From: Thermodesulfobacteriota bacterium
Lineage (GTDB): Bacteria; Desulfobacterota; Binatia; Bin18
Direction: 5' to 3'
DNA length: 64,000 nt
NCBI GenBank assembly: GCA_964291405.2
Contig: OZ219926.1
Coordinates: 2,848,001 to 2,912,000 of the forward strand
Shown: positions 1 to 23,405 of the stretch, piece after piece
Position numbering within the stretch: position 1 is the first letter of the stretch
Layout of the letters: each line of letters begins with the position of its first letter
Program-made: the position numbers and the translations under genes
The notes under the pieces: model-generated
Database searches by the model: none
The model's input: the letters and a program-made list of their open reading frames with translations, nothing else
Told to the model about the DNA's origin: nothing

Positions 1-96
1 AGACGTGATGAGCGCCGCTGTCGCGCCAAGTATGGCGAGCTGTGGGAACGCTACACGCAGCAGGTGCGTTATTCGATGCTGCCGTTTGTTTATTGA
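1..96 (+). CDS. C-terminal end of an ERG4/ERG24/DHCR7-family sterol reductase (gene begins left of the window)
   Basis: Frame 1 reads RRDERRCRAKYGELWERYTQQVRYSMLPFVY*, matching the family C-terminal motif RDExxCxxKYGxxWxxYxxxVxYxxxPxxY; 8 nt upstream of CYP51; not in the ORF track. Confidence 0.85.
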   Translation, partial: RRDERRCRAKYGELWERYTQQVRYSMLPFVY

Positions 97-104: not shown

Positions 105-1514
105 ATGGCACAACAGTCTCACAATCTGGCAACCCGGCGTTCGGTGCAGCTCTCGCCAGCGGCGGCAAAAGCCGTTCCCGAGCTCGCGGGTGGGTGGCCG
201 TTAATTGGTCATCTGCTGGATTTTCAAAAGGATCCGGTCTCGATGTTGAGCCGCGGTTGGCGCGAGCGGGGCGAACTCGTCCGGTTCCGGCTCGGTCCCC
301 GCGAGTTTGTTCTCTTCACCGGACCCGAAGCCCACGACGTGTACTTCAGCGCGCCCGAGGATCAGCTGAACGCCAAAGCCGTCTATCAGTTCACGGTCCC
401 CATCTTCGGCCGCGGCGTGGCGTACGACGCCGCCCCCGAGCTCATGGACGAGCAACTCGGATTCCTGTTTCCGGCGCTTCGCGAAGCCGCGATGCGCCGG
501 TTTGCCCGCGTCATGTTCGAGGAGACCAGCCAGTTCGCCGACACGCTCGGCGAGGACGGGGAAGTCGATCTGCCGCTCGCGCTGAACGAGCTGACCGTCA
601 AGATCGCCAGTCGTTGCCTCATTGGAGAGGAAGTTCGGGAGCAGGTGGACGCGGGTTTTGCCGAGGCGTATCACGATCTGCAAAAAGGCATCAACACCCT
701 GGGATTTTTTCTCCCCAGACTTCCCACCCCAGCGCATCGAAGCCGCGACCGGGCCCGGCGACAAGTGGCCGCGCTCTTTAGCCGGATCATGACGGCCCGC
801 CGGCTTTCCGGGGCCCGGCCCGACGATTTCATGCAGACACTCATGCACGCCCGTTACAGGGATGGCCGCGTCTTGGACGACGACGAGATTACCGGAATCC
901 TGTTGACGGTGTTGTTCGCGGGCCAGCACACCAGCGCGGTGCTCGCAACCTGGACCGGTCTGGAGCTCCTGAGGACGCCATCATACCTGACGCGGGTAAG
1001 AGACGAGATACAAGACGTCTACCGCGAGGCAGGAGCCATGAGCCTGGCGAGTCTCAAACGACAAGAGGCGCTGGAACACGCCGTACGTGAGTGCGAGCGG
1101 CTGCACCCGCCATTGATAATGCTGATCCGCAAGGTCCTCAAACCCGTGCGTTACCGAGACTATATCGTGCCGGCCGACACCCTGGCCATGGTGTCGCCGG
1201 CGGTCTCTCACCGGTTGCCCCACGTGTTTGCCAACCCGGAGCGGTTTGCTCCGGACCGCTTTGCTGCCCCCGCTTGCGAGGACAAACAACACCAGTACGC
1301 CTTGATCGGTTTTGGCGGCGGCAAACACCGCTGCATGGGGAAACATTTTGCGTACCTGCAGCTGAAAGCGATCTGGACCGTGCTGCTCGATCGCTTCGAT
1401 TTTCATCTCGACACCGCGTTTCCCGCCCCGAATTACGGGAGCTGGGTGACGGGCCCCGAGACACCCTGCCGGCTCCGCTACCGCCGCCGCTCGCAAGGGA
1501 GCCTTGTCCGATGA
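105..1514 (+). CDS. cyp51: Sterol 14-alpha-demethylase (CYP51)
   Basis: CYP51 signatures YQFTVPIFGRGVAYD and I-helix AGQHTS; ExxR; heme motif FGGGKHRCMG; ATG at 105 preferred over 42. Confidence 0.9.
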   Translation: MAQQSHNLATRRSVQLSPAAAKAVPELAGGWPLIGHLLDFQKDPVSMLSRGWRERGELVRFRLGPREFVLFTGPEAHDVYFSAPEDQLNAKAVYQFTVPIFGRGVAYDAAPELMDEQLGFLFPALREAAMRRFARVMFEETSQFADTLGEDGEVDLPLALNELTVKIASRCLIGEEVREQVDAGFAEAYHDLQKGINTLGFFLPRLPTPAHRSRDRARRQVAALFSRIMTARRLSGARPDDFMQTLMHARYRDGRVLDDDEITGILLTVLFAGQHTSAVLATWTGLELLRTPSYLTRVRDEIQDVYREAGAMSLASLKRQEALEHAVRECERLHPPLIMLIRKVLKPVRYRDYIVPADTLAMVSPAVSHRLPHVFANPERFAPDRFAAPACEDKQHQYALIGFGGGKHRCMGKHFAYLQLKAIWTVLLDRFDFHLDTAFPAPNYGSWVTGPETPCRLRYRRRSQGSLVR

Positions 1515-4500
1515 GCGGCACCACGCTTCGGCCCTACGACGTCGCCATCGTCGGTGCGGGTCCGGTCGGTAGCGTGTGCGCGCTCGCTCACGCGCGCAAA
1601 GGTGCCCGGGTGGCTCTGCTCGAAGCAAATCCCAAAGCGTCCAGACGACTGGCGGGCGAATGGCTGCATCCGCCTGCTGTACAGATGTTACGTGATGTTG
1701 GAGTAGAGCTCGATACGCAGCCCCGCAGCGCCGCGGGTAAAGGATTTGTGGTGTTCCCGGAAGACGGCTCAGAGCCGATAGTGCTGCCTTATCCGGACGG
1801 AGTCCAGGGTTTGGTATGCGAGCATGCAGCACTCGTCTCGCGGCTGCGTGAAGCTATCGAAAACGAATCGGGTGTCGACTGTATGCTCCACGCGCGGGTC
1901 CGTGCGGTCGAAGACGGGCGGGTCACTTTTGCCCGGAACGGCGCCGATGAATCCGTGACCGCGGCACGGATTGTCGGTGCCGACGGCCGGGCCTCAATCG
2001 TGCGTCAGTCGCTGGGTTTATCGACACGCCCGATGACCTGCTCGCGGATGGTAGGGGTCATACTAAGGGGGGTGAGTTTACCGCTAGAGGGGTATGGGCA
2101 TGTGCTGTGTGGTGGACCGGGTCCAGTGCTCATATACCGTCTGGGAGAGCATTACGTCCGGGTCATCGTCGATGTCCCAATGGCCGGCTGGACCCCCGGG
2201 GACCGGATTGGCTTCCTGTCGGATGCGTATGCCGGTGTGTTGCCGGAAACAATGAGACCTGCGTTTATCGAAGCGCTGCGGGGGGGACAATTCAGCGTCG
2301 CGGTCAATAATTTGAGCCTGCGCGTCACATACGGGAGTCCACATCGAGTGCTTATTGGCGATGCGGCCGGGCACTACCATCCCCTGACGGCGGTGGGAAT
2401 GACCCTCGGTTTCGGCGATGCGCTTACGCTGGCCGAGGGCGAGAACTTTCACGACTTCACCGCTAAGCGTTTGCAGGCGACCCGCGCTCCGGAGTTCCTC
2501 GCCATGGGGTTCTACGAGGTCTTTGCCGATCATCGGGCCGAGGTGGTGGCGATCAGACACGCGGTCTACCGGCGTTGGCGGGCAAAATCCACGGTTCGCG
2601 ACCGGACCATGCGTTTACTCGCCTGTGAAGACACCTCGGCGGCCCATCTGGGTCGCGAGTTTGGCGTGACGATGGCCCGGGCGGTTGCCGGGGAGATGCC
2701 GCGATCCTCCGACCAGCTCGCTTGGCGCCGAGCCCGCGACATCGTTTATGCGACCGCTGTGCGCCTCTGGTGGCTCCTGCGTGGCCTTCGGCAGTTACAC
2801 AAGGCGAGAAGCGCGGGCGGAGAAAAAGACGGGCGATTTCGGGACACCTTGGCCCTCGCGTTTCCGGTCTCTATGCCATCGAGAGTGAGTGACCCCCAGC
2901 CCAGCCGCCCGAGGGAGGTTGCGTCACCCGAGGCCGGTCCGGCCTTGCGGCGGGCGAGCGCGCGCTTGTTACATCTCCAGGATGAGGAGGGCGGCTGGGA
3001 AGGTGAGATGGTTTGGTGTCCCATGCTGACCGCGCAATATGTGCTGTTGCACCACATTCTGGAGCGGCCGCTCGAGCCCGGCCGGCGTCGGCGTGTGCTG
3101 CGCTCCTTCGAACGGACCCGTCTCGAAGGGGGCTTATGGGGTTTACACGAGCACGCACCACCCTCCCTGTTTGTCACCACCCTGGTGTACGTCGCGACGA
3201 GATTACTCGGTATCGAGCGGGATGATCCGTTCATCGAGCCGGCCCGGCGATTCCTGCAAGCAGAGGGGGTTCTCGGTATCCCGAGCTGGGGAAAGTTCTG
3301 GCTGGCGCTCCTCAACCTCTACGACTGGCGCGGGGTAAACGCCATCCTACCGGAGCTGTGGAGCTTACCGCGCTGGATCGCGTTACATCCCTCGAACTGG
3401 TACTGCCATACTCGGCTCATCTACATGGCGATGGCGGCGATTTATCCGCATCGGTTCCAGGCCCCCGTCCCGCCCTCGATCGCGTCGCTGCGAGAGGAGC
3501 TATTCCCCCAGGGCTTTGCCAACGTCGATTTTTCCGCCGGCCGCAATCGCTTGCGAGATGCCGACCTCTACGCGCGACCCAGTGTGTGGCTCCGAGCCGG
3601 ATATGAGTGTGCGCGGTTAGTCGAACGGTTCCACGCCAAACGTCTGCGCACCCGATGTATGGAAGCGATCATCCGGCACATCAAATGGGAGTTGCAAACC
3701 ACCAACCATACGAGCATCTCTCCGGTCAGCGGTCTTCTCAACATCCTGGCCTTGTGGCTGCGCGATCCTCACGACACCGATGCCGCCCAGGCGCTCGCGA
3801 AGCTGGATGACTGGATCTGGGAAGACGAGGAGGGTGGAGCGCGCGTTACCGGAGCGAGAAGTACCTCGTGGGATACCGGATTCTCTCTGCAAGCGCTGGC
3901 GACAGTGCCCGAGCTTGACGGGGTTCAAAGCGCCCTCCAACGCGGCGCCGACTTCCTGCGCCGGCAACAAATCGGCACCAGTTTCGCAGGATTCCGCGAG
4001 GCATATCGGATCGACCCCAAAGGCGGCTGGTGTTTTGCCGGGGGATGGCATGGCTGGCCGGTGACGGACTGTACCGCGGAAGCGGTGCTCGGGCTTATCG
4101 CCGCCGACCGCGAGGCCACGAGCCCGGCAGCGCTCGGCGAAGCGATTCGGTTCATGTTGCGTGGTCAGAACCGCGATGGCGGTTTTGGCAGCTATGAGGC
4201 ACAGCGCTCCGTGGTTGGCCTCGAGTGGCTGAATCCGGCCGAGATGTTTGGCGACTCGATGACCGAGCATTCCTATGTCGAGTGCACCGCGTCCTGCCTC
4301 GCGGCGCTCGCCGCCTGTCAGGAGCACTTCCCGCAAATCACGAATGGGGCGGTGAGGCGCGCCATCGCACGGGCTGACACTTGGCTGCGCCGGACCCAGG
4401 CGAGCGATGGGTCGTGGCGCGGCGTGTGGGGCGTGCAGTTCATCTATGGCACTTTCTTCGGGGTCAGGGGGCTGCTTGCTGCCGGGGCTCGTCCCGGCGA

Positions 4501-4912
4501 CCCGGCGCTACGTCTGGCCTGCCGGTGGCTGCTGGACCGCCAGCATGAAGACGGGGGATGGGGTGAGCATCACAGCGGTTGCCTGACCGGCCGCTATGTC
4601 GCACATGAGGAAAGTCAGGTCATCCAAACCGCGTGGGCAATGATCGCGCTCCTCGAGGCAGACGATGCGGACTGGACCGCGATTGCGCGGGGTGCCCGGT
4701 TCTTGCTCAGCACCCAGGAGGCGGATGGGACATGGCCCAAGCAAGACATGGCCGGGGTCTTTTTTCGTACGGCGCTACTGGACTATGTCCTATATCGACA
4801 GTATTTTCCCCTGCACGCGCTCAGTCTCTACGAGCAGCGACGCCAAGCCCGGCTGGATCCGACGTCCCCCGTTCCACTTACCGCCGACGCGACTGGCTGG
4901 AGATGTTCTTAA
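1511..4912 (+). CDS. Squalene epoxidase - oxidosqualene cyclase fusion protein
   Basis: N-terminal GAGPVG FAD motif, RLAGEWLHP and GDAAGHYHPLTAVGMT (epoxidase-like); C-terminal QW repeats and catalytic DCTAE; ATG at 1511 overlaps the CYP51 stop (ATGA). Confidence 0.9.
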   Translation: MSGTTLRPYDVAIVGAGPVGSVCALAHARKGARVALLEANPKASRRLAGEWLHPPAVQMLRDVGVELDTQPRSAAGKGFVVFPEDGSEPIVLPYPDGVQGLVCEHAALVSRLREAIENESGVDCMLHARVRAVEDGRVTFARNGADESVTAARIVGADGRASIVRQSLGLSTRPMTCSRMVGVILRGVSLPLEGYGHVLCGGPGPVLIYRLGEHYVRVIVDVPMAGWTPGDRIGFLSDAYAGVLPETMRPAFIEALRGGQFSVAVNNLSLRVTYGSPHRVLIGDAAGHYHPLTAVGMTLGFGDALTLAEGENFHDFTAKRLQATRAPEFLAMGFYEVFADHRAEVVAIRHAVYRRWRAKSTVRDRTMRLLACEDTSAAHLGREFGVTMARAVAGEMPRSSDQLAWRRARDIVYATAVRLWWLLRGLRQLHKARSAGGEKDGRFRDTLALAFPVSMPSRVSDPQPSRPREVASPEAGPALRRASARLLHLQDEEGGWEGEMVWCPMLTAQYVLLHHILERPLEPGRRRRVLRSFERTRLEGGLWGLHEHAPPSLFVTTLVYVATRLLGIERDDPFIEPARRFLQAEGVLGIPSWGKFWLALLNLYDWRGVNAILPELWSLPRWIALHPSNWYCHTRLIYMAMAAIYPHRFQAPVPPSIASLREELFPQGFANVDFSAGRNRLRDADLYARPSVWLRAGYECARLVERFHAKRLRTRCMEAIIRHIKWELQTTNHTSISPVSGLLNILALWLRDPHDTDAAQALAKLDDWIWEDEEGGARVTGARSTSWDTGFSLQALATVPELDGVQSALQRGADFLRRQQIGTSFAGFREAYRIDPKGGWCFAGGWHGWPVTDCTAEAVLGLIAADREATSPAALGEAIRFMLRGQNRDGGFGSYEAQRSVVGLEWLNPAEMFGDSMTEHSYVECTASCLAALAACQEHFPQITNGAVRRAIARADTWLRRTQASDGSWRGVWGVQFIYGTFFGVRGLLAAGARPGDPALRLACRWLLDRQHEDGGWGEHHSGCLTGRYVAHEESQVIQTAWAMIALLEADDADWTAIARGARFLLSTQEADGTWPKQDMAGVFFRTALLDYVLYRQYFPLHALSLYEQRRQARLDPTSPVPLTADATGWRCS

Positions 4913-5643
4913 TGGAATTTGAATCCGATGCGGCGCACGACAGCACAGGAGGCAAATTGGAATCGACCATGCGGGTAGCGGTATTGACTGGATTGGTGAT
5001 TGCCGTAACCACGGCAGCCTCTATCGGCTTCGGCTATGCCGTGCACGGCAATCTGAACGCTTACTACGGCCTGCTGAGCCTGTTTTTCTGCATCAACCTG
5101 CCGATCTGCTACTGGGAGATCTGCCTGTTCCTGCGACGCGACGCCGTCGAGCGACGTGCGGACTACTGGCGCGCCAGACGAAGAAAGACTGGTCGAACGC
5201 CGGCCGTTGAGTTTCTGTTGAGTGAGATTCCGCTGAGCAAGGCATTGTCCCCGATCGTCTGGGCGGACGTGTGGGCCACCTATAGCATGTACGACGGATC
5301 CTATGCCGACCGACGCACGTTCGGCTTCAACGCAGATATCGCCAACGGCTTTTTCACGCCAATCCCGGCCCTGGTTCTGCACGCGACCTTTGCGGTCGGT
5401 TTTTTGCCTGCCCTACTGGCGGGCATCCTGGGTGTGATGCTGTTTTGGCAGTGGACCTACGTCACGTCGGTTTACTTGGTGAGCTTTTTCGTAGCCAGGC
5501 GGCATAAGCAAATCGCGCGGGGCGATCTGTGGCTCTACATCTGGAGTACGAACTCGCCGTGGGTGCTCTTCGCGCTTCTGGGGCTCTATGTTTCCGTTCG
5601 ACTGATTGTCGATGGCGATTACGAGGTTCTGGGCCACCGGTAA
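4912..5643 (+). CDS. EXPERA/EBP-like membrane protein, putative sterol delta8-delta7 isomerase
   Basis: Multi-TM protein with WATYSMYDGSY (WxxYxxxDxxY) and NSPW motifs; TAATG coupling to the cyclase stop. Confidence 0.6.
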   Translation: MEFESDAAHDSTGGKLESTMRVAVLTGLVIAVTTAASIGFGYAVHGNLNAYYGLLSLFFCINLPICYWEICLFLRRDAVERRADYWRARRRKTGRTPAVEFLLSEIPLSKALSPIVWADVWATYSMYDGSYADRRTFGFNADIANGFFTPIPALVLHATFAVGFLPALLAGILGVMLFWQWTYVTSVYLVSFFVARRHKQIARGDLWLYIWSTNSPWVLFALLGLYVSVRLIVDGDYEVLGHR

Positions 5644-5782: not shown

Positions 5783-6814
5783 TCAGTCTCCCGAGCGCCG
5801 GGGTTTACGGGCCAGGAAGAAATACATCGGTGTAAAAATACCGGACTCGCCACCGTCGACCAAGGCGTCCGCCGCCCTGTTTAACAGCGTGCTGACCGAG
5901 GCGGCGCCCTCCGGAAACACCCGCAACTTCTCGCCAACCCTCAACACCAGATTGGTCAAGGCGCGGCCAACGGGTGTGCGCGGAATACTCTTGAGACTGA
6001 GGTCGCGACCCTGCAAGGCGCGGTACCAGGGCGTTTCCGGATGCGATTCGGGGGCAAGGTCGTGGGATTCCAGGAGTTCGAATCCGGCCCCGCGCAATGC
6101 GGTGCATATCTCCGACGAGAAGGCGATATCCGGTAGTGCATCCCCCGCCATGATATCTTCCTTGATCCGCAGGTGCTCTGCGTTCCTCGGATCGAATTTC
6201 TCCGTGAGACACCAGTCGTAGCCCGCGAAACAAGCCCCCGGACGCAGGACGCGGAAGATCTCCCGGAACGCGGCAGTCTTGTCCGGTGCGTGGGGCATGG
6301 ACTCGATGGCAATGGCGGCATCGTAGTGGTCGTCACCTTCGGGAACGTGCATGTAGTCGCCGTGGATGAAACGGCACAACGACTGGACATCTCGGGTGTG
6401 CACTTTCGCGCGCTCGATCTGATAGGCGTTAGTGTTGATCCCGACGAAGCTGGCCCCGGAATAGCGGGCCAGATTGCCCATGGGCCCGCCTACCCCGCAC
6501 CCCGCATCGAGCACTTGCATCTCCGGTCCCAGGGACAGCCGATCGGCGAGAAAACGCTGGTGCCTGAGCAGCGACGCCTTGAAGCTCTCGCTCCGGCGCC
6601 GGGGAGCAAAGTGCCAGGACTGACCCCAGCCGAACTCGTAGAAATCGGTCACCAAGTCGTAGTAGTGATTGACGAGCAACTGATACCGCTCTTTTCTCCG
6701 CTCCGAGCCAGCATCGTGGAGCCCGGTGTATTGATCGACCACGGATTTCACTTCATCCGGGGCGAGATTCGCGAGGGAACGAGAGCTCGATCGTTTGGCG
6801 GGCGTACGGGTCAT
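5783..6814 (-). CDS. Sterol 24-C-methyltransferase (SMT/Erg6-like)
   Basis: YYDLVTDFYEFGWGQSWHFA (region I), LDAGCGVGGP (SAM binding), IESMPHAP (region III), YDW, C-terminal GIFTPMYFFLARKP. Confidence 0.9.
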   Translation of the reverse strand: MTRTPAKRSSSRSLANLAPDEVKSVVDQYTGLHDAGSERRKERYQLLVNHYYDLVTDFYEFGWGQSWHFAPRRRSESFKASLLRHQRFLADRLSLGPEMQVLDAGCGVGGPMGNLARYSGASFVGINTNAYQIERAKVHTRDVQSLCRFIHGDYMHVPEGDDHYDAAIAIESMPHAPDKTAAFREIFRVLRPGACFAGYDWCLTEKFDPRNAEHLRIKEDIMAGDALPDIAFSSEICTALRGAGFELLESHDLAPESHPETPWYRALQGRDLSLKSIPRTPVGRALTNLVLRVGEKLRVFPEGAASVSTLLNRAADALVDGGESGIFTPMYFFLARKPRRSGD

Positions 6815-6818: not shown

Positions 6819-7907
6819 TCATTCTCCGCTCTCCGTCCCGCGCGTCAAATACTCCCGCCACTTCCGCACCGTCACTTTTTGAAAAGCCCGGACCACCGGA
6901 TTGAGCTCGATAGGAGGGGCGTCCCAATGTCTCTCGTACCCCTGCTGCTCCGCTTCGACCGCAAATCGATCCTGGGCGAGTAAAGGGCCGATGAGCAGAC
7001 GGTTCGCGATCTTCAAAACCGTGGTCATGGCGAAACGGGGAATACGTACCGGCAGCAAAGGTATCTTCAGCGACTTGAAGTAGAACAGGAAGAACGTCCG
7101 GGTGGTCCGCTCATCGATTGGCAGCACAAAAAGCCAGTGTTTTATCTCGTCATCGGTGTTCGACCACTGATAGGGGTATTGAAAGCACAGCTCTATGTGA
7201 TTGGTGTCGAGCCGGTTGTGATCGACAAACAGCCCGGAGATACGCCCGCGTCCGACCCGCGTATCGTAGGCGAGGTGCACGTTGTCACCGACAGTCTCGC
7301 AACGGGTGAGGGTGGCGCCTTCGAAGGGACGGTATCGACGGTGCAGATGGGCGTGGGAGAAGTCGCTCACGTTGTCGATCACCATCGAGTGGTGGGCCGA
7401 CCAGGTGAAGCTGAGCGGGACACAGGCCCACCGCGCGGGTCCTTCGAGCTCGGGGATGTCCGGGATCTGGCGCCGCTGTGCCTGCTCCGGTTTCCCAGGG
7501 AACAACCAGATCAGACCGTAACGGACCGTCACGGGATAGGTCCTCAGCGAGACCTTCGGGAGACCTCGTCCGAAGCGGTCGTGGGGGATCTCGGCAAGGC
7601 GCCCGTTTTCATCATACTGCCAGCCATGGTAGGCGCACACGAGCCGGCAGCCTTGCACCTCGCCCAGGGAGAGTTTGAGCTGGCGATGCGCACAGCGATT
7701 CTCGACCGCGTGAAACGAGCCATCTATCCCGCGAAATAACGCAATGGAACGTTTCCAGAAAATGATCTCGACCACTGTGCCCGGTTTGACTCGGTGCGCT
7801 TCTTCAACCGCGTACCAGTAATCCGGGTCCAGACCCGCGGCGCGCGCTTGCTGACGCAAGCTGCCGGCCTCCTCGAAGCCGGAGGGCGCACTCGGTGCCG
7901 GGCTCAT
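6819..7907 (-). CDS. Rieske non-heme iron oxygenase, SdmA-like (candidate sterol C-4 methyl oxidase)
   Basis: CAHR...CAYHG Rieske motif, DNVSDFSHAHLH iron site; coupled to an SDR gene inside the sterol cluster. Confidence 0.7.
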   Translation of the reverse strand: MSPAPSAPSGFEEAGSLRQQARAAGLDPDYWYAVEEAHRVKPGTVVEIIFWKRSIALFRGIDGSFHAVENRCAHRQLKLSLGEVQGCRLVCAYHGWQYDENGRLAEIPHDRFGRGLPKVSLRTYPVTVRYGLIWLFPGKPEQAQRRQIPDIPELEGPARWACVPLSFTWSAHHSMVIDNVSDFSHAHLHRRYRPFEGATLTRCETVGDNVHLAYDTRVGRGRISGLFVDHNRLDTNHIELCFQYPYQWSNTDDEIKHWLFVLPIDERTTRTFFLFYFKSLKIPLLPVRIPRFAMTTVLKIANRLLIGPLLAQDRFAVEAEQQGYERHWDAPPIELNPVVRAFQKVTVRKWREYLTRGTESGE

Positions 7908-9049
7908 TTCGGACCCCCAACGGAAGGCATCTGTATGCCTTGGCTCGGTATGAGGTTTTCCACTTGTTCCGTGGCGTTCACGCGCGGGCGTTTCGCGAGC
8001 GGATTCGTGATCGCGTTGCGGTGGTAGTGAAAGGCGTAGGCCTCATGAACCGCAGCCTGGATACTGGTTGGCTGATAGCCGAGCTCCCGTCTCGCTTTGC
8101 CGGTGTCGGCGTGACGGCGCTTTTGTAACAGGCGGATGGCGCCAGGGGTAAAACGCTGGGGAAAGCTCGGATGAAACCGGCTCAGATAAAAGCTCGCCGC
8201 TTCCGAAAAGACGAGCATCAGGCGGGTCGGGATTCGCCGGTGCGGTCGCGGCACGCCTGAGACCTCCTCGAACAGATCCAAGATGTCCGAGATGGTCTTG
8301 TACTCGCTGCTAAAGATGTACTTTTCGCCCGAGCGTCCTCGGTGCATGCACAACAGATGTCCTTCGACAATGTCCCGTGCCGCGACAAACTCGAAACCGC
8401 CATCAACGTACGCATAGAGCTTGCCGTTCGTGTAATCGCATAAGGTCCTGCCCAACCGCGAGGGGAAAAAATCGCTGCCCCCGACCACCGCACAACACGT
8501 TGCGACCACAACATCTTGTCCCGCCGCCGCGGCGCGCCAGCACTCGTGCTCGACGAGTGCCTTGCTACGCTCGTAGGGCATCGTGCGTTCCATGGGATAG
8601 AACTGCATCGTCTCGTCGCTGGGCGCGGACGGATCATCCAAATCATAACCGACCGCACTGAAAGAGCCCGTCACCACCACCCGGCCGGCCCCCGCCTCCC
8701 GCGCCGCTTGCAGCACGTTGCGGGTACCGAGAACGTTGCACTCGAATACTTCCCGGCGATGAGCGCGGTTGCCTTCGATGGTTGAAACCTTGGCCGCGCA
8801 GTGATAGACGCCTTGACAGCCCGTGAGCGCATGCCTGGCGGCATTCAAATCTCGGATGTCACCAAACGCGCGTTCAACCTCGAGGCCTTCCAGTGCTTCG
8901 TTGTTGTCCTCGTGTCTCAGCAACACCCGGACTCGAACGCCGTCGTCGAGCAGTCGGCGCACGAGATTGGCGCCCACATGCCCGGCCGCGCCGGTGACGA
9001 GAACGGGTGGCGTCGATGAGCCAGCAGATGTGCTTGATCGTGAGGTCAT
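7904..9049 (-). CDS. NAD-dependent epimerase/3beta-HSD-like SDR, SdmB-like (candidate C-4 decarboxylase/reductase)
   Basis: TGAAGHVG Rossmann motif, YERSK catalytic motif; 4-nt overlap with the Rieske gene; start could be 9049 or 9100. Confidence 0.7.
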   Translation of the reverse strand: MTSRSSTSAGSSTPPVLVTGAAGHVGANLVRRLLDDGVRVRVLLRHEDNNEALEGLEVERAFGDIRDLNAARHALTGCQGVYHCAAKVSTIEGNRAHRREVFECNVLGTRNVLQAAREAGAGRVVVTGSFSAVGYDLDDPSAPSDETMQFYPMERTMPYERSKALVEHECWRAAAAGQDVVVATCCAVVGGSDFFPSRLGRTLCDYTNGKLYAYVDGGFEFVAARDIVEGHLLCMHRGRSGEKYIFSSEYKTISDILDLFEEVSGVPRPHRRIPTRLMLVFSEAASFYLSRFHPSFPQRFTPGAIRLLQKRRHADTGKARRELGYQPTSIQAAVHEAYAFHYHRNAITNPLAKRPRVNATEQVENLIPSQGIQMPSVGGPK

Positions 9050-9239
9050 CTCGTCTAGTGTACTGCTTCCAAAGATACCGCCTCCTTGAGGCCGGGTCAA
9101 TACGTGGGTAAACGGGGTAGTAGGTCAAGTTTGCGATGTAAGTTATTGTTTCTACTGGCTAAAAAATTTCAAAGCATGTAGCCAACGGGCGAGGAACGCG
9201 CTATCTTTCTCCCATGCGATACGACTGGAGAAAAGAATA

Positions 9240-10606
9240 GTGCCGCGGCGCATAGCCATTGTCGGCGGCGGCATATCAGGGCTGGCGGCCGCGTGGGCGC
9301 TGGATCACGACCCGGACCGATTCGATTTTCGGCTGTTTGAGGCGCAGGACCGGATTGGCGGAAACGCGATCACTGCCGATATGCCGCAGGATGACGGCAG
9401 CTTCATTCCTTTCGATATTTCCGTCACCGCTTGCATTTCGTCGGGGTACCACCACATCCTGCTGTTGATGAAAAAGTTCGGCATCGAACTGCTCGATACC
9501 AGATTCAGCTACAGTGTGAAGTACCGTGGCGGCGTGTACGCCCACGATTTCGACTCCGACATCCGAGAGCAACTGCAATCCGAAATTGCGAAGTTTCAAC
9601 GAATCCTGAGGCGTCTGAAGTGGTTCGGTTGGCTGAGCCGGTCCCAATCGAAGTTTCTGAACGCCCTCAATCCGTTCAACTACATCAGCATGGGGACGGT
9701 CCTGAATCTGGCCGGTTTCTCCGGGGACTTCCGGTACAAGATACTGAAGCCCATGTTCGTCAACTTCCTGATGGCGACCAATGTGTTCGATATGCCTGCA
9801 TCTCTCTTTACGCGGTATCTCGAATTCTTTGATATCGAAAGCGCCACGCCCATGCAGACGTGGGACCGGGGAACACGACGTATCTACGAAAACCTGTCGG
9901 CCAATTTCCGGGACAAGATATGCCTCAACCGGCCTGTCCGAAAGGTGTATCGCCAGTCGTCCGGCATCGTGGTCGAGGACGAGGACGGTGTACAGGAGAC
10001 GTTCGACGAGGTGATCTTCGCCTGCAATGCGAACCAGACGCTGATGATCCTCGACAACCCCACGATGCTGGAGCGCTATATTCTCTCGTCGATCCGGTAC
10101 GAGAGCGAACTGCACAACCATACGGTCGTGCATTCGGACGCCTCAGTCCTTCCGGACAACGCAGTGCAGCCCCTGAAAACGCGGAGCAATCATATCGAGC
10201 AATACGGCGCCCGACCGGACAATTATGAAATCACCTACATCATGCACAACCAGCAGCCGTGGGCCAATCGGTCTGACAAGCCTTGTCTGGTAACCTACAA
10301 CCCCATCAGCGAAATCGATGGGAAGAAGATTATCGGAAAGTGGTGGTTCCAGCACATTGTGCATGACGTGCGCCACGTCGCCCTGCTCGTTCCTTTGTTC
10401 CGCTTCATTCAGGGCAAGAAAGGCAAACCTGGCACTGTGGCGCCCATACGCTGATCAACAGCCAGGAAACCTGCTTTGTCAGCGGGCTCGCCGCTGCAAC
10501 ACAGATCGGTGTGGATTATCCCTTCGACGATCCCGGGGCGCGGCGGGCGTTCAACCATTACGGGAGTATCATGTATGGTCGGGGGTTCAGGAAGGCGAAG
10601 GGCTGA
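9240..10606 (+). pseudogene. FAD-dependent oxidoreductase (COG2907-like), frameshifted near 10420 (real lesion or assembly error)
   Basis: GGGISG...FEAQDRIGGNA N-terminus; after QGK the C-terminus RQTWHCGAHTLINSQETCFVSGLAAA...RKAKG* continues in another frame to TGA at 10604-10606. Confidence 0.75.
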
Positions 10607-10642
10607 AGACCGGTACGACCGCATCCGCCACAGGATCACGGC

Positions 10643-11722
10643 TCACGGATGGGTGGATTTGACCTTGCCCGATTCCAGCCTTTCCGGCTGAAGCTCCGGA
10701 TAGAACTGCCGACAATAGCGACGGTATTTCCCTATGGGGCCGTCCGTCTGGCACAGCCGCGGGGAAGACCGATGCCGCTTCCGGTCCCAGATCACCACGT
10801 CCTGCAGCACCTCCCGTTTTTGCCATGAAAGCAGAATGTGTTTCATCAGCCTTTGGCGCAACTTCATCGGTACGAAACCCAGACCCGAGATGAACCGTCG
10901 GGGCTTGCGGATTTCCCGCAGTTGGCCGACCAGCACAAGATCGATGAGGGTGCCATCGATGGGTGTGGGAAGTACCCACAATCTCGCATCCATATCGATG
11001 GTTTTCTCGTGGATTTCGACGAAGGAGTAGCCCAGTCCATAGATGTGAGTGACGGCCGAGACGTCATACACGAGGTCTTTTACACCCAGGAGCCTGTGAA
11101 CGCTTTTGAAGTCGAAGCAACTCTTCAGGTAGGCGCCGTCCACTGTTACCGAACCGACCGGACTCACATTGTCGTAGCCGTGTACGTGGCCCAGGTGTCC
11201 GAGGTCCACGGAATTCTCCGCTGTTTCCTGGGGATGGCCGCGGAATCGGAGGGTCCGGAATCCCAACTCGCTCCACTCCGCACCGGTGGGTGGGTCACCT
11301 GGAAGGTCCCAATGCGGAGGCCGGCCGCCGCTCCCGAACCAGGCGAAGACCAGACCGAGGATTTCTCTGGTCTGGTATACCTTCAGTTTCGCGGCTCTGG
11401 GTGCCGGGGCGTTCGGAGTCGCAACGCATTGGCCGGTCGTATCGTACTCAAACCCGTGAAACGGACAGACGAGGCGACCGTTGCATACCTGGCCGCCAGC
11501 CTCCGGCCCCAGGTACGAGCCCAGGTGCGGACAGACCGCGTCGGCCACGCAGACACGGCCATCCTCGTCGCACCAGGCGACGATTTCCTCGCCCAGCCAC
11601 GTCTTCTCGATCAGTTTCTCTCGCAGAATGGACTCGCGGCTTGCGACGAAATACCACCCCTCAGGGAACGCTGGTAGCTCATCCATGCTAGTCATGGACA
11701 GTCTTTTGGTGTTCCTAGTCAT
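10643..11722 (-). CDS. Rieske oxygenase of the Neverland (cholesterol 7-desaturase)/KshA type
   Basis: FPEGWY, CPHLG...CPFHG, ENSVDLGHLGHVHG, QDVVIWDRK, DGPIGKYRRYCRQFY. Confidence 0.75.
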   Translation of the reverse strand: MTRNTKRLSMTSMDELPAFPEGWYFVASRESILREKLIEKTWLGEEIVAWCDEDGRVCVADAVCPHLGSYLGPEAGGQVCNGRLVCPFHGFEYDTTGQCVATPNAPAPRAAKLKVYQTREILGLVFAWFGSGGRPPHWDLPGDPPTGAEWSELGFRTLRFRGHPQETAENSVDLGHLGHVHGYDNVSPVGSVTVDGAYLKSCFDFKSVHRLLGVKDLVYDVSAVTHIYGLGYSFVEIHEKTIDMDARLWVLPTPIDGTLIDLVLVGQLREIRKPRRFISGLGFVPMKLRQRLMKHILLSWQKREVLQDVVIWDRKRHRSSPRLCQTDGPIGKYRRYCRQFYPELQPERLESGKVKSTHP

Positions 11723-15832: not shown

Positions 15833-16627
15833 TTATAGCTCTTCAAGGGCATCCTTTTCTATCCATCCGCGCCGCCCATCGCAGCGGGCGACCTGCCACC
15901 AGCCTTCTCGGACATCGAGCAGTCGGACCCGCGTGCCCTGGGGGACGGAGAAATGGACCGTGCCGCTCGGAGCCGGCTCAAAACGCACTGGAGTATCCTC
16001 TTGTTTGAGTACCACAGCGTGTCGCTGCCAATCGCTCGTCCGTAGCTGCTGTACCAGCGAGAGCGTTATTACCACCAGGCAGGCAGTGACCCCCCAGCCC
16101 ACGGAGAGGAGCCATTGGGGCTGCCGCGGCCACAGACGGTACACGGCAAAAACCCCGAAGAGCAATGTATAGGCCGCACTAGTGAGCCACACCAATTGGT
16201 CTGTCGCGACTCGATGGGCAAGCGGAAAGACAAGGCGTTGCCAGAGGGGCGGCTGGCAGACTTCAGCGTCCGTGAGTGAGTGGGCGAAGCGCAGGTTGGC
16301 TTCCAGGTCCGGGTCACTGGGGAGGAAGCGCCGTGCCCGCTCGTAATTCAGAATGGCCTTTCCCACTCGTCCTGCCTTGAAATAGGCGTTGCCGAGGTTG
16401 AAATAGAGATTGCCGCTGACGAAGCCGGACTGAAGCACGGCTTCGTAGGCCTCCACTGCCTCGGCGTACTGACCTTGCGTGTAGAGCGTATTCGCATGAA
16501 AAAAAGCGGTCTGAGGGGTTGTTGGCGCCGCGGCTGCCAGGGAGGGCGCCCAGCAGAGACAGACACCGCAAAGAGTAAATCGCAAGCCTCGAAATGGCCG
16601 AAGTCGGAGAAATTGCGGCAGCCTCAT
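15833..16627 (-). CDS. batE: BatE-like TPR + SH3 protein
   Basis: YFNLGNAYFK...AILNYERA TPR, TM segments, C-terminal SH3b. Confidence 0.8.
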   Translation of the reverse strand: MRLPQFLRLRPFRGLRFTLCGVCLCWAPSLAAAAPTTPQTAFFHANTLYTQGQYAEAVEAYEAVLQSGFVSGNLYFNLGNAYFKAGRVGKAILNYERARRFLPSDPDLEANLRFAHSLTDAEVCQPPLWQRLVFPLAHRVATDQLVWLTSAAYTLLFGVFAVYRLWPRQPQWLLSVGWGVTACLVVITLSLVQQLRTSDWQRHAVVLKQEDTPVRFEPAPSGTVHFSVPQGTRVRLLDVREGWWQVARCDGRRGWIEKDALEEL

Positions 16628-18534
16628 GGTCCTGTAATGCTAAGCGGCTTGCGTCGCCCCCCTTTTTTGGGGGGCTGCCGAAGGCGAGGGGGCAAAACAA
16701 CAAACTGGCGGTGAGTGCGTTCAAGCTGGTCAATAATCTGACGGACGAGGGATAGGGTCTCGTGACTCTTGTCCCGCATGGATGCCGGTGTTCCTTGGGC
16801 GAAACGCACCTGCTCGCAGGTCTCCTCAACTCGTTCAATCTGATCCAGGCTCGTCTGAGAGACGCCACGCTCGCGGAGCGCCTGTGTATCAACGCCACCA
16901 GGGGGCAGATCGAACTTGGCGGATATATAGGCTTGGAGCGTACGAGCCAGCATTGTGTACAAGGCGGGATACTCCTCCTGGGTGAGATGGTGCTCCGCTT
17001 GGGCCAGGCTCTGCCGTGCCTGTTTCCCCGCCACTGTAAAACGGGCATAGCGACTATCGGCGTGCAGTCGGCGACGACGCTGGTCGTACCACCAGACACC
17101 CAGGAAGAGCAGCACCGGCAGGGGCTGCCACAGGAGAAAACCAAGGCTGCGATACCACGGCCCGGCGTGCGGAACCAGAGAGCCGGGCTCGTCTTTGATA
17201 TAGACAATGTCCTGACCCAGTGCTTCCTGCTCGTCCTGACTGCGTGCCGATGGTGCGCCCGGGTGGCCGGTTACGACTGTTTTTCGTGTTGTAGTTTTCG
17301 GGGGACGAACGACAAGGGCAACAGGCTGGCTTTCGAGCGTCCGGTAGCGCCGGGCCTGAGGATCAAAATAACTGAACTGAGCCGCGGGAACGGCATCCAG
17401 GGTCTGGTCCTGTGGAATGAGCACCTGCTCAAAGGATTTTGTTGACCCCTGCGTTTTCCCGGCAAGCGGTTCATACACACGGAAACCATCAGTCTGCACA
17501 AATGCGGGCGCGGCGGCATCGGCAAGATAGCCCGTGCCTTCGATGCGCATATGGACAGTAATCGGGTCTCCGACAGGAAGGTCCTGCGGAGTTGCTTTCA
17601 CGTCCAACTCAAACGAGCCGACCGCGCCTGAAAAATTGTCCGGTCTGCTGGTTGCCGGTAGCGGTTGCACGCTGAGCGTCAGGGAATCGGAACGCAGGGT
17701 GAGCTGCCGCCGCTCGGAGGAAAACGTCGAAAAGAAGTCACTCTGAAAAAAACGATCAAAGAACGGGTCGCTGAAAGGCGAACCGCCCCGGCGGCGCGTG
17801 AGGACGTTGAGCTGGAGGCTCGCCGGTCCGAGCGCCAGGCTCCCGGAGCGGAGGGGAATAACCTCGGTGTCAAAATGCAAAACAGTGAATGTCTGTCCGT
17901 CCAGCGTCTGTTGCTGTTGTGTGGGTTCGGAAAACGGCTCGACAGAGAACCCGTCTTTACTGAATTGCGGATACTGAACATCGGATACGCGGGCCGCCCC
18001 AATATAAAGCTTGACCACAATGGGAACACGCTCGTGGAGATAGACTTCGTGGCGTGGAACGGAAAGCTGAAGACTCAGCCCGTTTTGGCCGCTCGTGGCT
18101 TGAGGACGTTGTTGAGCCGGAGAGGACGGTCTGCCCGACGGAGAAGGTGATGGCTGGGCGGCCGCAATCGTGACGTTAAGCGGGCCGGTGTAATACTGCC
18201 GCCCTTGATATTCCACGGGAAATGGACCCAGGGTGAACTGTCCTGGCTCGAGCGGGAGGAGAGAGTAGCGATGCTGCACAGACGCCGCGACTTGCCCATC
18301 CCTGATAGACACCTGAGTCGAGGGACCGAGATAGCGACTCTCGAAGCCGTCGATATCGAGAGTCGGGGCCGGCGTGTCCTGAGCCCCCCTGACCTGAATG
18401 GACAGCGTCAACGCTTCACCGAGCGTCGCACGCTGCGGGTGAATGGAGGCGTGGACACTCACCTCCGAGGCATCAGCCGGACAAACCAGCCCGAACAGCA
18501 GGCAGAGGAAAGGAATACACGCGCTCCTTCTCAT
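16624..18534 (-). CDS. batD: BatD-like protein
   Basis: Signal peptide, FSGAVGSF, FSYFDP; operon position. Confidence 0.8.
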   Translation of the reverse strand: MRRSACIPFLCLLFGLVCPADASEVSVHASIHPQRATLGEALTLSIQVRGAQDTPAPTLDIDGFESRYLGPSTQVSIRDGQVAASVQHRYSLLPLEPGQFTLGPFPVEYQGRQYYTGPLNVTIAAAQPSPSPSGRPSSPAQQRPQATSGQNGLSLQLSVPRHEVYLHERVPIVVKLYIGAARVSDVQYPQFSKDGFSVEPFSEPTQQQQTLDGQTFTVLHFDTEVIPLRSGSLALGPASLQLNVLTRRRGGSPFSDPFFDRFFQSDFFSTFSSERRQLTLRSDSLTLSVQPLPATSRPDNFSGAVGSFELDVKATPQDLPVGDPITVHMRIEGTGYLADAAAPAFVQTDGFRVYEPLAGKTQGSTKSFEQVLIPQDQTLDAVPAAQFSYFDPQARRYRTLESQPVALVVRPPKTTTRKTVVTGHPGAPSARSQDEQEALGQDIVYIKDEPGSLVPHAGPWYRSLGFLLWQPLPVLLFLGVWWYDQRRRRLHADSRYARFTVAGKQARQSLAQAEHHLTQEEYPALYTMLARTLQAYISAKFDLPPGGVDTQALRERGVSQTSLDQIERVEETCEQVRFAQGTPASMRDKSHETLSLVRQIIDQLERTHRQFVVLPPRLRQPPKKGGRRKPLSITGP

Positions 18535-18543
18535 TCTTCTTCC

Positions 18544-19335
18544 CTACCAATCCCGTAAGGGTTCGGCCACGCCGCCGCGTTGGGCCTGCCGGGCAAACTC
18601 CTCCGGGCTGAGTTCTTCGTTACGGGCCGTATCGATCACTGACTGCGCTTCGTCCGTGGACATCTCGTTGGGCTGGTCTTGTCCAGCCTGTCTTTCCTGC
18701 TCCGCCCCAGAGGGAGCCTCTGGCTGTTCTCCGGCGTGTTGCTGGTCTTGTCCGTTCTGCTGCTGTTGCCCGTCGTCTTGTTCGGCTTGTGGCCGCTCTT
18801 CTTGTTCGGGTTGATTTGGCTGGCTGGGTTGGGGTTGATGCTCAAGTTTCTCTTGCAGGGCTTCAAGCCTTTTGGTCACAAACTCATAGTTGAACTTTAC
18901 ATCCTGATCTGTCGGGTCGGCACCAAGCGCCCGCCGATACGCGGCCAAGGCGTTGGTATAGGCGGTGAGAGCTGCCTGCGGATTCTGTTCCTCTGCCTGC
19001 GCGCCCATTTTATACTGGGTATTCCCCATGTTATAGGCGGTCCTGGCGGCCCGTTCGGCATCCTTATCGGAGTCTTCAGGGCTTGCCTGCACGCGTGAGA
19101 AAGAGGACAGCGCTTGCGTGTACTTGCCCGCTTTATAGTGCGCTGTTCCCATATTGAAATTGAGAAGCGGGGAATCGGGATGATCGACTAATGCCTGGCC
19201 ATACGATTCGGTCGCATCACTAAATTTGCCTTCGGAGAATAATCGGTTTCCCTCGACAACTTGGCTGCGCAGACTATCAGTCCAGGCGACACAGAGGAGG
19301 GCACAGCTCAGCAGCAGTCGCTGTACGGTGTTCAC
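18544..19335 (-). CDS. batC: BatC-like TPR protein
   Basis: TPRs, Q-rich linker, C-terminal RDW. Confidence 0.75.
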   Translation of the reverse strand: MNTVQRLLLSCALLCVAWTDSLRSQVVEGNRLFSEGKFSDATESYGQALVDHPDSPLLNFNMGTAHYKAGKYTQALSSFSRVQASPEDSDKDAERAARTAYNMGNTQYKMGAQAEEQNPQAALTAYTNALAAYRRALGADPTDQDVKFNYEFVTKRLEALQEKLEHQPQPSQPNQPEQEERPQAEQDDGQQQQNGQDQQHAGEQPEAPSGAEQERQAGQDQPNEMSTDEAQSVIDTARNEELSPEEFARQAQRGGVAEPLRDW

Positions 19336-20402
19336 GACTCGTTCTCCCTTTCTCTCGGGAATAAGGAGCGACTCAACTGCTCGGGAGGCGCTCCGTCTCC
19401 GACCGCTTGTGAACGCCGGTTCCGGATACAGGCTTCCAGGACGAGGAGGAGAAGGCCCACGGCGAGCGGGAGCTGAAAGCGCTCCGCATAGCGACGCTCC
19501 AGGGTTGAGGTGAGGTCTCGCTTCTCGAGCTGGCTCAGATAGCGCGTATAGATTTCCTCCAGACCCAGACTCGGGCCGGTATCGTAGACATAGGCGCCGC
19601 CCGTTGTCAGCGCAATCTGCTGCAAAGTCTCCGTATCCAAACGCGACTTGACGACCTGCCCCTGGCGGTCTTTCAGAAAACTGCGTCTTCCATCCACGTT
19701 GAGCGGAATCAGTTCGCCTTCCGGGCTGCCGACCCCGACGGTGTAGATTTTGATTCCTTTTGCGGCTGCCTGCTGACTGGCCGCCTGAATCTGTCCGTCA
19801 TGGTCTTCACCATCGGTGATAATCAGCAGGGCGTGATGGTGACCGGGCTGGTTCTCAAAGGCCGCCAGCCCGGTTCTGATGGCCTCGCCCAAGGCGGTTC
19901 CGCCCTTGGGGATAATACCGACCGTGACGGAACGCAGGCTCTCTAAAAATGCTCCGTAATCCAGCGTCAAGGGGCACTGGATAAAAGCCGAGCCCGCAAA
20001 AGCGACCAGTCCAATCCGGTCTCCCTGAAGGTGCTGTACGAAATCCCGAAGGGCGAGTTTAGCACGATCCAGCCGTGTCGGGGTGATATCCGTTGCGAGC
20101 ATGCTGCGCGAGGTGTCAAGCGCGACAACGATATCCGCCCCCTCACGGCGCACCTCTTCCCACTGAAACCCCCAGCGCGGCCCTGCCAGGGCAAGGATCA
20201 GGAAGGTGAGCGCCCCGACCAACAGGCCGACTCGCCAGCGGTGGCCGCGCTGATCCGTATCAGGCGTCAGAACGGGTAGGAGACTGGCCTGGGCGAATTG
20301 TTCCAAGGCGCGCCGTCGCCGTCGCAGGGCCCATATCAGGAGGCCGGCAACAAGCGGAACGCAGAACAACAGCCACAGAAACTGCGGGGTACGCCAAACC
20401 AT
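19332..20402 (-). CDS. batB: BatB-like VWA protein
   Basis: DTSRSM MIDAS, CPLTLDY, TDGED; ATG at 20402 overlaps the batA stop. Confidence 0.8.
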   Translation of the reverse strand: MVWRTPQFLWLLFCVPLVAGLLIWALRRRRRALEQFAQASLLPVLTPDTDQRGHRWRVGLLVGALTFLILALAGPRWGFQWEEVRREGADIVVALDTSRSMLATDITPTRLDRAKLALRDFVQHLQGDRIGLVAFAGSAFIQCPLTLDYGAFLESLRSVTVGIIPKGGTALGEAIRTGLAAFENQPGHHHALLIITDGEDHDGQIQAASQQAAAKGIKIYTVGVGSPEGELIPLNVDGRRSFLKDRQGQVVKSRLDTETLQQIALTTGGAYVYDTGPSLGLEEIYTRYLSQLEKRDLTSTLERRYAERFQLPLAVGLLLLVLEACIRNRRSQAVGDGAPPEQLSRSLFPRERENES

Positions 20403-21397
20403 TAGGGCAGCTTTCGGAGGAGAGTGTGATTCAGGCCCGTTTCCAGACCAGCCAGGGTAAGCGCCAACAGAAGACACCAGGGATAGAGCTCGTCATAATC
20501 GAGGTATAGGGGAGCCCGAAACGGAGTGCGCTCCAACTGGCTAATTGTTTCGTAAACGGCCTGGAGGCTGGCCGTGTCCGTTGCGCGGAAATAGCGCCCT
20601 CCCGTGGTCTGCGCAATATTCGACAGCGTCTCCTCGTCAATATCAACCTGGATGGGACGATAGACGGTATTGCCAAACAGATCCCGGGTCGGATAGGGCG
20701 CCATGCCGCGGGTGCCCGCCCCTATGGTGTATACTTTGATGCCCAGAGTGTGGGCCGCGTCCGCCGCGGTCAGTGGAGAGATCCGGCCCGCATTGTTCTG
20801 TCCATCGGTGAGCAGAATCACGAGCTTGCTCTTGGCCTCCGAGTGCTCCAGACGACCGGTCGCGGTGGCCAGGGCAGAGCCAATGGCTGTACCATCCTCA
20901 ATCATCCCAATCTCGGCTCGGTCCAAATTCTGCAACAGCCAGCCATGATCAAGGGTGAGCGGACACTGGGTATAGGGACGGGCGCTGAACAGGACCAGCC
21001 CAATCCGATCCCCGCCCCGGGCGGTCACAAAATCCCTGACCACAGACTTCACCACCTCCAGCCGATTGGCTCGACCGGTATCCAGACTGAAGTCTTCGGA
21101 CAGCATGCTGCTCGAAATATCAACGGCCAGCACGATATCGATACCTTCACCGTAAGACTGACTCTCGGCTTTGCCGAGTTGCGGACGGGCAAGGGCGAGG
21201 ACGAGGAGAAAGAGGACCGTCCCCCGCAACACCGGTAAAATCCAACGCCAGTTTCGTTTCCCCATATGTGTCAGGGAACGCAGGACAACCAAGCTGGGAT
21301 AACGGACTGCTGCCCCCTGGGTACCCCGCCGTTGGAACCAGAAGACGAGCGGGATGAGGAGCCAGATCAGCAGCACCCAGGGATCATGCAGCCGCAT
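20402..21397 (-). CDS. batA: BatA-like VWA protein
   Basis: DISSSM MIDAS, GTAIG, TDGQNNAG; AGGAGG RBS. Confidence 0.85.
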   Translation of the reverse strand: MRLHDPWVLLIWLLIPLVFWFQRRGTQGAAVRYPSLVVLRSLTHMGKRNWRWILPVLRGTVLFLLVLALARPQLGKAESQSYGEGIDIVLAVDISSSMLSEDFSLDTGRANRLEVVKSVVRDFVTARGGDRIGLVLFSARPYTQCPLTLDHGWLLQNLDRAEIGMIEDGTAIGSALATATGRLEHSEAKSKLVILLTDGQNNAGRISPLTAADAAHTLGIKVYTIGAGTRGMAPYPTRDLFGNTVYRPIQVDIDEETLSNIAQTTGGRYFRATDTASLQAVYETISQLERTPFRAPLYLDYDELYPWCLLLALTLAGLETGLNHTLLRKLP

Positions 21398-22520: not shown

Positions 22521-22529
22521 GAGGAACTT

Positions 22530-23405
22530 CTAATGCCGCTGTTCGCGCCTGCGAAAAAAGCGCAGCAAAGCGTCTACATACGGCTGGTCAGTGCGCACCG
22601 TAATGGTATCCGTATGCGCACGCTGCAACATGCGCGCTCTGTCGTCCCGGGCCGCTGCCGCCTGCCGGGCGAACTCTTCCCGGACACGCCGGTCACCAGT
22701 ATCGACCAGCTCTCGCTCTCCGGTTTCGGCATCTTGGAGCTCAATCAGACCGATGTTCGGCAGGGTCAGCTCGCGAGGGTCGTCTAACACAATGGCAATC
22801 ACGTCATGGCGACGATTGGCAATAGTGAGCGCAAAGGCGGCGTGCGGGTCGAGCCAATCGGAAATGAGAAAGACCACTGCGCGTCGCTTGCTGACATGAT
22901 TCAGATGTTCCAGGGCGGCCGTAATCTTTGTGCCGCGCTGCTGACTCTGGAAGGAGAGCACCTCACGAATTACCCGTAGAACGTGGCGGAGCCCCTTCTT
23001 CGGCGGGAGCGACAGCTCGACTTCGTTACTGAATATCACCAGCCCGACTTTGTCATTATTGGTGATGGCCGAGAAGGCAAACAGGGCCGCCATCTCTGCT
23101 GCCATCGTACTCTTTAGCTGAGACACGGTTCCAAACCGAGTCGAGGCGCTGGCGTCCACCAAGAGCATTACCGTGAGTTCTCGCTCTTCGCTAAACCGTT
23201 TGACGTGCGGGACGCCCGTCCGGGCGGTGACGTTCCAGTCTATGGTCCGGACATCATCACCGGGGAAGTATTGTCGGACCTCGGCAAACTCCATGCCGTG
23301 GCCCTTGAATGCGCTCTGGTACTGGCCGGCAAACATATCGTTGACCAAATGGCTGGTCCGAATATGAATCTTACGGACCGCTTTGAGTTGTTCCGAAGTG
23401 AGCAT
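22530..23405 (-). CDS. DUF58 family protein
   Basis: GMEFAEVRQYFPGDDVRTIDWNVTAR, EERE. Confidence 0.9.
   Translation of the reverse strand: MLTSEQLKAVRKIHIRTSHLVNDMFAGQYQSAFKGHGMEFAEVRQYFPGDDVRTIDWNVTARTGVPHVKRFSEERELTVMLLVDASASTRFGTVSQLKSTMAAEMAALFAFSAITNNDKVGLVIFSNEVELSLPPKKGLRHVLRVIREVLSFQSQQRGTKITAALEHLNHVSKRRAVVFLISDWLDPHAAFALTIANRRHDVIAIVLDDPRELTLPNIGLIELQDAETGERELVDTGDRRVREEFARQAAAARDDRARMLQRAHTDTITVRTDQPYVDALLRFFRRREQRH

Follow-up and report, generated by a model that had tools for sequence, protein, structure and literature searches.

Sterol C-24 methyltransferases (SMTs, SMT/ERG6 family) use SAM to methylate C-24 of the side-chain double bond, the aromatic Region I being thought to stabilise the resulting cation before a proton is lost (10.64898/2025.12.19.695621). 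A steroid gene cluster that includes such an enzyme was reported to be transferred horizontally, with Binatia among its hosts, and consists of an ERG24-CYP51-OSC operon that has, at its 3' end, an SMT encoded on the opposite strand (Kelly et al. 2022, PMC9531527). In the available text of a second study (Brown 2023, PMC10070321), the propylators are limited to two SMTs of Aplysina and one of Chlamydiae, three of eight functional sponge-symbiont SMTs ethylate, and the SMTs of the Petrosia and Theonella clusters yield, according to the authors, no 24-isopropyl sterols. The sequence basis of these differences is treated in a recent preprint (10.64898/2025.12.19.695621), in whose available parts both enzymes that were mutated require Gly at yeast position 249 to make C30 sterols: G249D in the Chlamydiae SMT abolished both C29 and C30, G225D (the equivalent of 249) in the Aplysina symbiont SMT abolished C30 and kept 59-85% of the C29 output, and none of 11 substitutions at this position gave C30. 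Gly249 is found in four of four known propylators; the rule comes from two enzymes and one preprint, which itself allows that propylators with another residue at 249 may yet turn up. According to the same text, Phe83 raises the C30 output of a propylating SMT, Phe81 and Phe83 are neither necessary nor sufficient (four tested SMTs with Phe83 make 24-methyl sterols only), and E243A lowered C30 in the Chlamydiae SMT. The preprint also lists 25 residues conserved in functional SMTs, including GWGXXFHF; the list describes tested enzymes, and departures from it are treated by the authors as a warning of inactivity.

The SMT studied here (the query SMT) lies in a window of 64,000 nucleotides, the whole stretch of DNA that was analysed (contig OZ219926.1, positions 2,848,001 to 2,912,000). 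The window opens on the 3' end of an ERG24-type sterol C-14 reductase (1..96, plus strand; whole gene G000:C3:2847005-2848096), followed on the same strand by a cytochrome P450 (42..1514) assigned to CYP51 by its position in the cluster, the gene order being that of Kelly 2022 and Brown 2023, by a fused squalene epoxidase/oxidosqualene cyclase (1508..4912; PF08491 plus PF13249/PF13243, TIGR01787 over cut-off, and 726 bits against TIGR03463, the cut-off of which is 851) and by an unnamed 244-aa membrane-type protein (4909..5643) that lies tail to tail with the SMT (5783..6814, minus strand). Also on the minus strand, an SdmA-like Rieske sterol C-4 demethylase (6819..7907; best NCBIfam match NF052579 at 410 bits, below the cut-off of 600) stands 4 bp upstream of the SMT start, and an SdmB-like decarboxylase/reductase (7904..9100; best NCBIfam match NF052578 at 309 bits, again below a cut-off of 600) overlaps the sdmA start at 7904-7907. 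The sdmB-sdmA-SMT strand thus faces the ERG24-CYP51-epoxidase/cyclase-orf244 run. The genome shares with the cluster described in the available text of Kelly 2022 the ERG24-CYP51-OSC operon flanked at its 3' end by an opposite-strand SMT, whereas sdmB-sdmA ahead of the SMT and the 244-aa gene between OSC and SMT distinguish it from that cluster and are found in other Binatia loci.

Among 80 SMT loci kept from 178 in species-representative genomes, a cyclase lies within 10 kb of the SMT in 57 and the other core genes in 54-57, and these loci span Binatia, Nitrospirales, Alpha- and Gammaproteobacteria, Gemmatimonadota, Acidobacteriota, Rhodothermales and Opitutales. Within the genus, an SMT of the query's clade is present in 3 of 24 genomes, and one more genome has only a 47% SMT. 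The window encodes a thiolase that shares 97-98% identity with those of three named Ca. Binatia MAGs, and SMT alleles 85-95% alike occur in runs X2 and X4, both labelled sponge metagenome. By gene content and similarity, the query SMT belongs to the published, horizontally spread sterol cluster of sponge symbionts, and the genome that carries it is Candidatus Binatia-like.

The query ORF (343 aa) has no internal stop and carries the domains Methyltransf_11 (PF08241, E 1.7e-17) and Sterol_MT_C (PF08498, E 6.5e-22), both above cut-off, together with the Region II motif DXGXGXXGP, Glu195 of Region III and Gly217 of Region IV. An AF2 model built on 31 close homologs was poor (pLDDT 53); a second one, from a 149-row alignment, reached a mean pLDDT of 93.9, and the nearest solved folds are class I SAM methyltransferases. 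Neither the sequence search nor the fold search returned a solved SMT structure, the best matches being other SAM methyltransferases at 17-31% identity. The gene is thus predicted to encode an intact SAM-dependent sterol C-24 methyltransferase, every sequence feature tested matching the SMT family, and the initial annotation of a bacterial sterol C-24 methyltransferase is borne out by domains and conserved residues alike. The dN/dS of the gene against four Binatia loci (0.26-0.38) is near that of its neighbours (0.13-0.40), which we count in favour of the single-methylation reading proposed below. For expression, three of six RNA runs, all from samples other than the source, were compared at 97% likeness: two gave no match and one a 35-base piece.

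The query SMT is the only full SMT of the genome: PF08498 has a single match, the query itself, in an assembly 97.5% complete, and a second intact SMT able to finish a multi-step methylation was sought across the genome and not found. A remnant of a second SMT lies outside the window (G000:C3:3771010-3771298, minus strand); it covers the first 95 codons or so, is frameshifted shortly before Region I, stops after VLD and is followed by an unrelated gene. Short broken SMT pieces resembling this remnant also occur in two genomes of the same genus, G009 and G028.

The initial annotation singled out three motifs as unusual, and all three are found where it placed them: YEFGWGQSWHF in Region I (6608..6640, minus strand; aa 59-69, yeast 81-91, with Tyr81, Phe83 and Trp89, the latter encoded at 6614-6616), IESMPHAP in Region III (6284..6307, minus strand; aa 170-177, the conserved Glu195 being retained) and YDW in Region IV (6212..6220, minus strand; aa 199-201). 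Their rarity depends on the frame of comparison. Against the whole family, scored on the 121 of 150 SMT representatives that are gap-free at the scored sites, they are indeed rare (Trp89 in 1, Met197 in 1, Pro198 in 4, Asp224 in 18 and Phe83 in 16), and both these representatives and the available text of PMC5595292 confirm IEATCHAP as the usual form of Region III. Within the symbiont clade, in contrast, they are mostly ordinary: among the best 120 of 3675 homologs, query included, Phe83 is present in 118, IESMPHAP in 85, YDW in 40 and Trp89 in 22.

Trp89 is the one departure of the query SMT from the 25-residue list, of which it keeps 24 (the exception being Phe89 to Trp), whereas the functional SMTs of Brown and Welander 2025 hold all 25. 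Trp89 cannot be put down to an isolated error, as it occurs in 27 of 190 non-identical clade sequences (left of 216 aligned once duplicates, the self locus and those below 60% identity were removed); it also recurs in Binatia, Terriglobia and Bryobacterales records. No tested SMT with Trp89 is reported in the available text of PMC10070321 or 10.64898/2025.12.19.695621, and a literature search on Phe89 mutagenesis and Trp89, conducted mostly outside subscription journals, returned nothing relevant.

Several relatives of the query SMT have been assayed. The SMT at L044:10170-11204 is that of 'Nitrospira sp., coral reef 1 of 2' (IMG 2682229274; PMC10070321); it is 82% identical to the query, and over aa 201-250 of the query this locus is the nearest DNA match (87%). 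Both proteins have Tyr81, Phe83, ESMPHAP and adjoining sdmB/sdmA in the same kind of cluster, but L044 differs in having Phe89, Asn249 and CEW, and its region holds a second SMT paralog. The L044 SMT is functional and makes (epi)codisterol from desmosterol, and the available text does not count it among the propylators. The SMT of L105, that of the 'Sarcotragus foetidus' contig LXNI01004480.1 (PMC10070321), is 78% identical and has Tyr81, Phe83, IESMPHAP and Asp249-Ala250 like the query, but Phe89 and YEW; its listing among clusters with functional SMTs suggests that it is active, and the same text does not give it as a propylator. The Theonella 'Chromatiales 1 of 2' SMT (L076) is 73% identical, with ESMPHAP and a DHCR24 two genes away. 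The accession numbers of L105, L109 and L113 are those of tested Sarcotragus and Petrosia SMTs, and none of L044, L076, L105, L109 and L113 is among the three propylators in the available text of PMC10070321. Finally, the L103/L102 SMT is probably the propylating Ap_sym_SMT ('Aplysina aerophoba JGIcombinedJ30088_10000835 1 of 2') or a near copy of it, as judged from its G225 numbering, the Aplysina gene order and a metagenome prefix shared with another Aplysina entry of PMC10070321; the contig of the tested Aplysina enzyme is absent from the 80 loci kept of 280. L103 and the query are 81% identical, both 343 aa long with a gap-free alignment, and share Phe83, but L103 has Phe81, Phe89, IESTAHAP and Gly249-Gly250 where the query has Tyr81, Trp89, IESMPHAP and Asp249-Ala250.

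The assignment of position 249 is based on the anchor residues of the preprint and on the spacing between positions 81 and 249, which is most often 168 residues in the family and 166 in the query's clade. The published anchors G217 and G268 both map onto the query with an offset of 24, so that position 249 is Asp225 (6140..6142, minus strand), aligned without gaps to Gly225 of L103; a contig of run X1 covers the codon without a difference. As Gly249 defines the propylators, its absence means that the query SMT is not a candidate propylating enzyme, and Gly249 is found in only 2 of 120 members of its clade. Of the features associated with propylation, the query does have Phe at 81 and/or 83 (Phe61 is position 83, Tyr59 position 81; Phe83 is common to 118 of the 120 best homologs), and Glu at yeast position 243. 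The proposal that the Region I aromatic residue influences methylation agrees with the effect of Phe83 on C30 output. The further step, that the motifs point to multiple methylation, is not supported: Phe83 is neither necessary nor sufficient, and ESMPHAP is present in the tested, non-propylating relatives L044, L076 and L105 (73-82% identical to the query). As for the products foreseen by the initial annotation, 24-isopropyl side chains are contradicted by Asp249, while 24-ethyl side chains stay within reach, the Aplysina G225D mutant having kept C29.

We propose that the query SMT probably, though far from certainly, methylates its substrate once to give C28 sterols (24-methylene or codisterol-type) and not 24-isopropyl sterols. 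Taking the order of steps from the scheme of Brown 2023 (PMC10070321, available text) and the gene identities from homology, squalene would be epoxidised and cyclised by the fused epoxidase/cyclase, demethylated at C-14 by CYP51 with ERG24 and at C-4 by SdmA/B, and the cluster would thus supply the SMT with a C-14- and C-4-demethylated Delta24 sterol. The SMT would methylate C-24 of the Delta24 side chain and stop, proton loss giving 24-methylene and/or Delta25(27) products as for L044, and Asp249 may leave too little room for a third round, probably also for a second. No DHCR24 appears to compete for the Delta24 sterol: a search of the genome with the L076 protein found no homolog, the best match being 25% identical over part of that protein. 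Against a single methylation stand Glu243, the occurrence of Trp89 at a site conserved in functional SMTs, and the fact that L103, the probable parent of the C29-keeping G225D mutant, is 81% identical to the query. We rank one methylation first, two second, an impaired enzyme third and 24-isopropyl last.

Two methylations, giving 24-ethyl(idene) (C29) sterols without C30, are an unlikely outcome but the best of the alternatives. Phe83 and Glu243 are both in place, some of the symbiont SMTs tested in PMC10070321 ethylate, and the probable Aplysina propylator still ethylates after G225D; yet the query lacks Phe81, its Region III is unlike that of L103, and, in the sources available, G249D stopped C29 in the Chlamydiae enzyme, Phe83 is insufficient and ethylators are a minority among tested sponge-symbiont SMTs. 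Somewhat less likely still, the protein could be a chimera that is impaired or wants another substrate. Trp89 replaces a Phe that belongs to the 25 residues conserved in functional SMTs and usually goes with a small residue at 249: in 25 of 27 Trp89 sequences, positions 249-250 are Thr-Gly or Asn-Gly, and the query alone pairs Trp89 with Asp-Ala. Two further signs point the same way: the adjoining flavin oxidoreductase has a 2-base insertion, and only a broken remnant is left of the second SMT copy. The frame of the query SMT is intact, however, and only one of the 25 residues is changed; Trp89 recurs across Binatia, Terriglobia and Bryobacterales, and, as the sequences with Trp89 are related to one another, shared ancestry may be all that the pairing reflects, so that we claim no statistic for it. 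Three methylations to 24-isopropyl sterols we consider most improbable: Phe83, membership in the clade of the probable Aplysina propylator (81%) and the latitude the preprint allows at 249 speak for them, but Asp249 is the very loss-of-function residue tested in both mutated enzymes, all four known propylators have Gly249 and Trp89 would add bulk. After these alternatives, a single methylation is still the reading we prefer.

The gene appears to be recombinant: its front half would be of the Trp89 lineage, whereas its back half, and position 249 with it, would derive from a different allele type of the symbionts. Residues 1-125 of the query are 98% identical to P0002 (Trp89, Thr249-Gly250), whereas residues 206-338 are closest, at 86-89%, to P0014, P0051 and P0037 (Phe89, Asp249-Ala250); the putative import of the latter allele type would thus cover aa ~206-338 (5801..6199, minus strand). 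Informative sites relative to P0002 and P0014 switch near residue 205 (p ~1e-4, 10,000 shuffles, the parents having been chosen after looking). In trees of 39 hand-picked sequences, the query joins P0002 when the front half is used (support 98/92, from a bootstrap that had not settled) and the Asp-Ala group when the back half is used (SH-aLRT 94, a quick tree). Over codons 201-250, DNA identity to the query is 79-80% for four Binatia alleles and 85-87% for Nitrospirales alleles. Against the four Binatia loci, the dS of the SMT is 0.25-0.40 and that of its neighbours 0.07-0.19, at similar dN/dS; faster protein evolution as the cause of the divergence of the SMT from its Binatia kin is rejected because dS rises with dN. 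Mosaicism is not special to the query copy, to judge from the same test on the clade, which gave p <=0.001 for 14 of 120 proteins, parent and child both being counted. No recombination inside the SMT gene is described in the available text of PMC9531527, and a literature search on recombination within bacterial SMTs, mostly outside subscription journals, found no relevant paper.

It is hardly credible that the mosaic arose in assembly, by the joining of two symbiont alleles that occur together. In favour of this, run X1 holds many alleles 85-95% alike, none of its listed contigs spans the whole gene, none of the listed pieces covers the Trp89 codon and base 6615 carries another letter in every X1 contig aligned there. 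Against it, both halves are covered by X1 contigs with 0 differences and an even depth of 33-37, the putative junction lies inside one 254-base contig (6013-6266), and the gene sits on a 4.9-Mb contig. X1 may be the source sample, and we do not count it as independent support.

It is tempting to speculate, although we think it doubtful, that sponge symbionts reshuffle sterol side chains by recombination within SMT genes across phyla, swapping the segment with position 249 as the gate of product length, and that the product of the chimera, with its Trp89 front half and Asp249 back half, is a different one, perhaps chiefly sterols of the Delta25(27) codisterol type. Such sterols have been proposed as what putative C-26 methyltransferases act on to give rise to aplysterol and the 26-methylstigmastane biomarker, and if this were true, neither symbiont taxonomy nor a whole-gene SMT tree would predict the sterane precursor made.

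The query SMT is a further member of a known, assayed clade, for which the biomarker-relevant isopropyl reading is highly improbable; it matters little for that argument because the cluster, the enzyme class and the biomarker case were published between 2022 and 2025, close relatives were assayed and this copy fails the published isopropyl screen. What is left as odd is Trp89 and the swap of the segment with position 249, which make it a natural test case for the 25-residue and Gly249 rules. A second symbiont SMT clade (P0121-P0240; L057:11203, L063:8487, L068:2255-4354), about 47% identical to the query, fits the published isopropyl screen far better by its residues: 113 of its 120 members have Gly249, and 70 of these 113 also have Phe81 or Phe83. 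Its Gly249 members are the better biomarker candidates. Tandem SMT paralogs, two or three per genome, occur in some genomes (L029, L057, L012, L020 and L068), and some of them have degenerate motifs, such as Gly at yeast position 81.

The 244-aa protein gave no Pfam match up to E 1; its Atlas rank 3 cluster (score 0.92), in which 20% of members are annotated EBP, is a weak lead to EBP-type sterol isomerases, and a homolog adjoins the SMT in 30 of 80 loci. A search for ERG2 gave no match, but neither did its controls, so that it does not show ERG2 to be absent; the protein is a candidate isomerase and could fill an isomerase step that might otherwise be missing.

Other genes adjoin the cluster. 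A flavin amine-oxidoreductase-like gene (window 9240-10611, plus strand), present in 22 of 80 SMT loci, differs from four Binatia loci by two additional bases (near 10420-10430) that put its last part out of frame, a lesion or an assembly error. It is followed by a KshA-like Rieske oxygenase (10643-11722, minus strand) and by a second CYP51-like P450 (12563-13984, plus strand; 34% to the P450 of the cluster), and both may act on sterols, either to tailor or to degrade them. Immediately upstream of the window, an efflux system and ERG24 are separated by two long ORFs (G000:C3:2842730-2846982, plus strand), and genes resembling these ORFs adjoin the second SMT in L044 and L103. Further along the window (15833-24398 and 24630-63589) are a MoxR-DUF58-vWA locus and a formate-dehydrogenase-like pair, beside genes of ordinary metabolism such as those for purine and thiamine; no sterol-specific gene was seen among 34 ORFs scanned beyond its first 20 kb. 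Elsewhere in the genome are two genes of the squalene/phytoene synthase family, a second ERG4/ERG24-family reductase (G000:C3:4683535-4684674, minus strand; 31% to the reductase of the cluster) and a separate squalene-hopene-cyclase-like gene (G000:C3:3660087-3662123, minus strand), and given the latter two, the genome may make both sterols and hopanoids.
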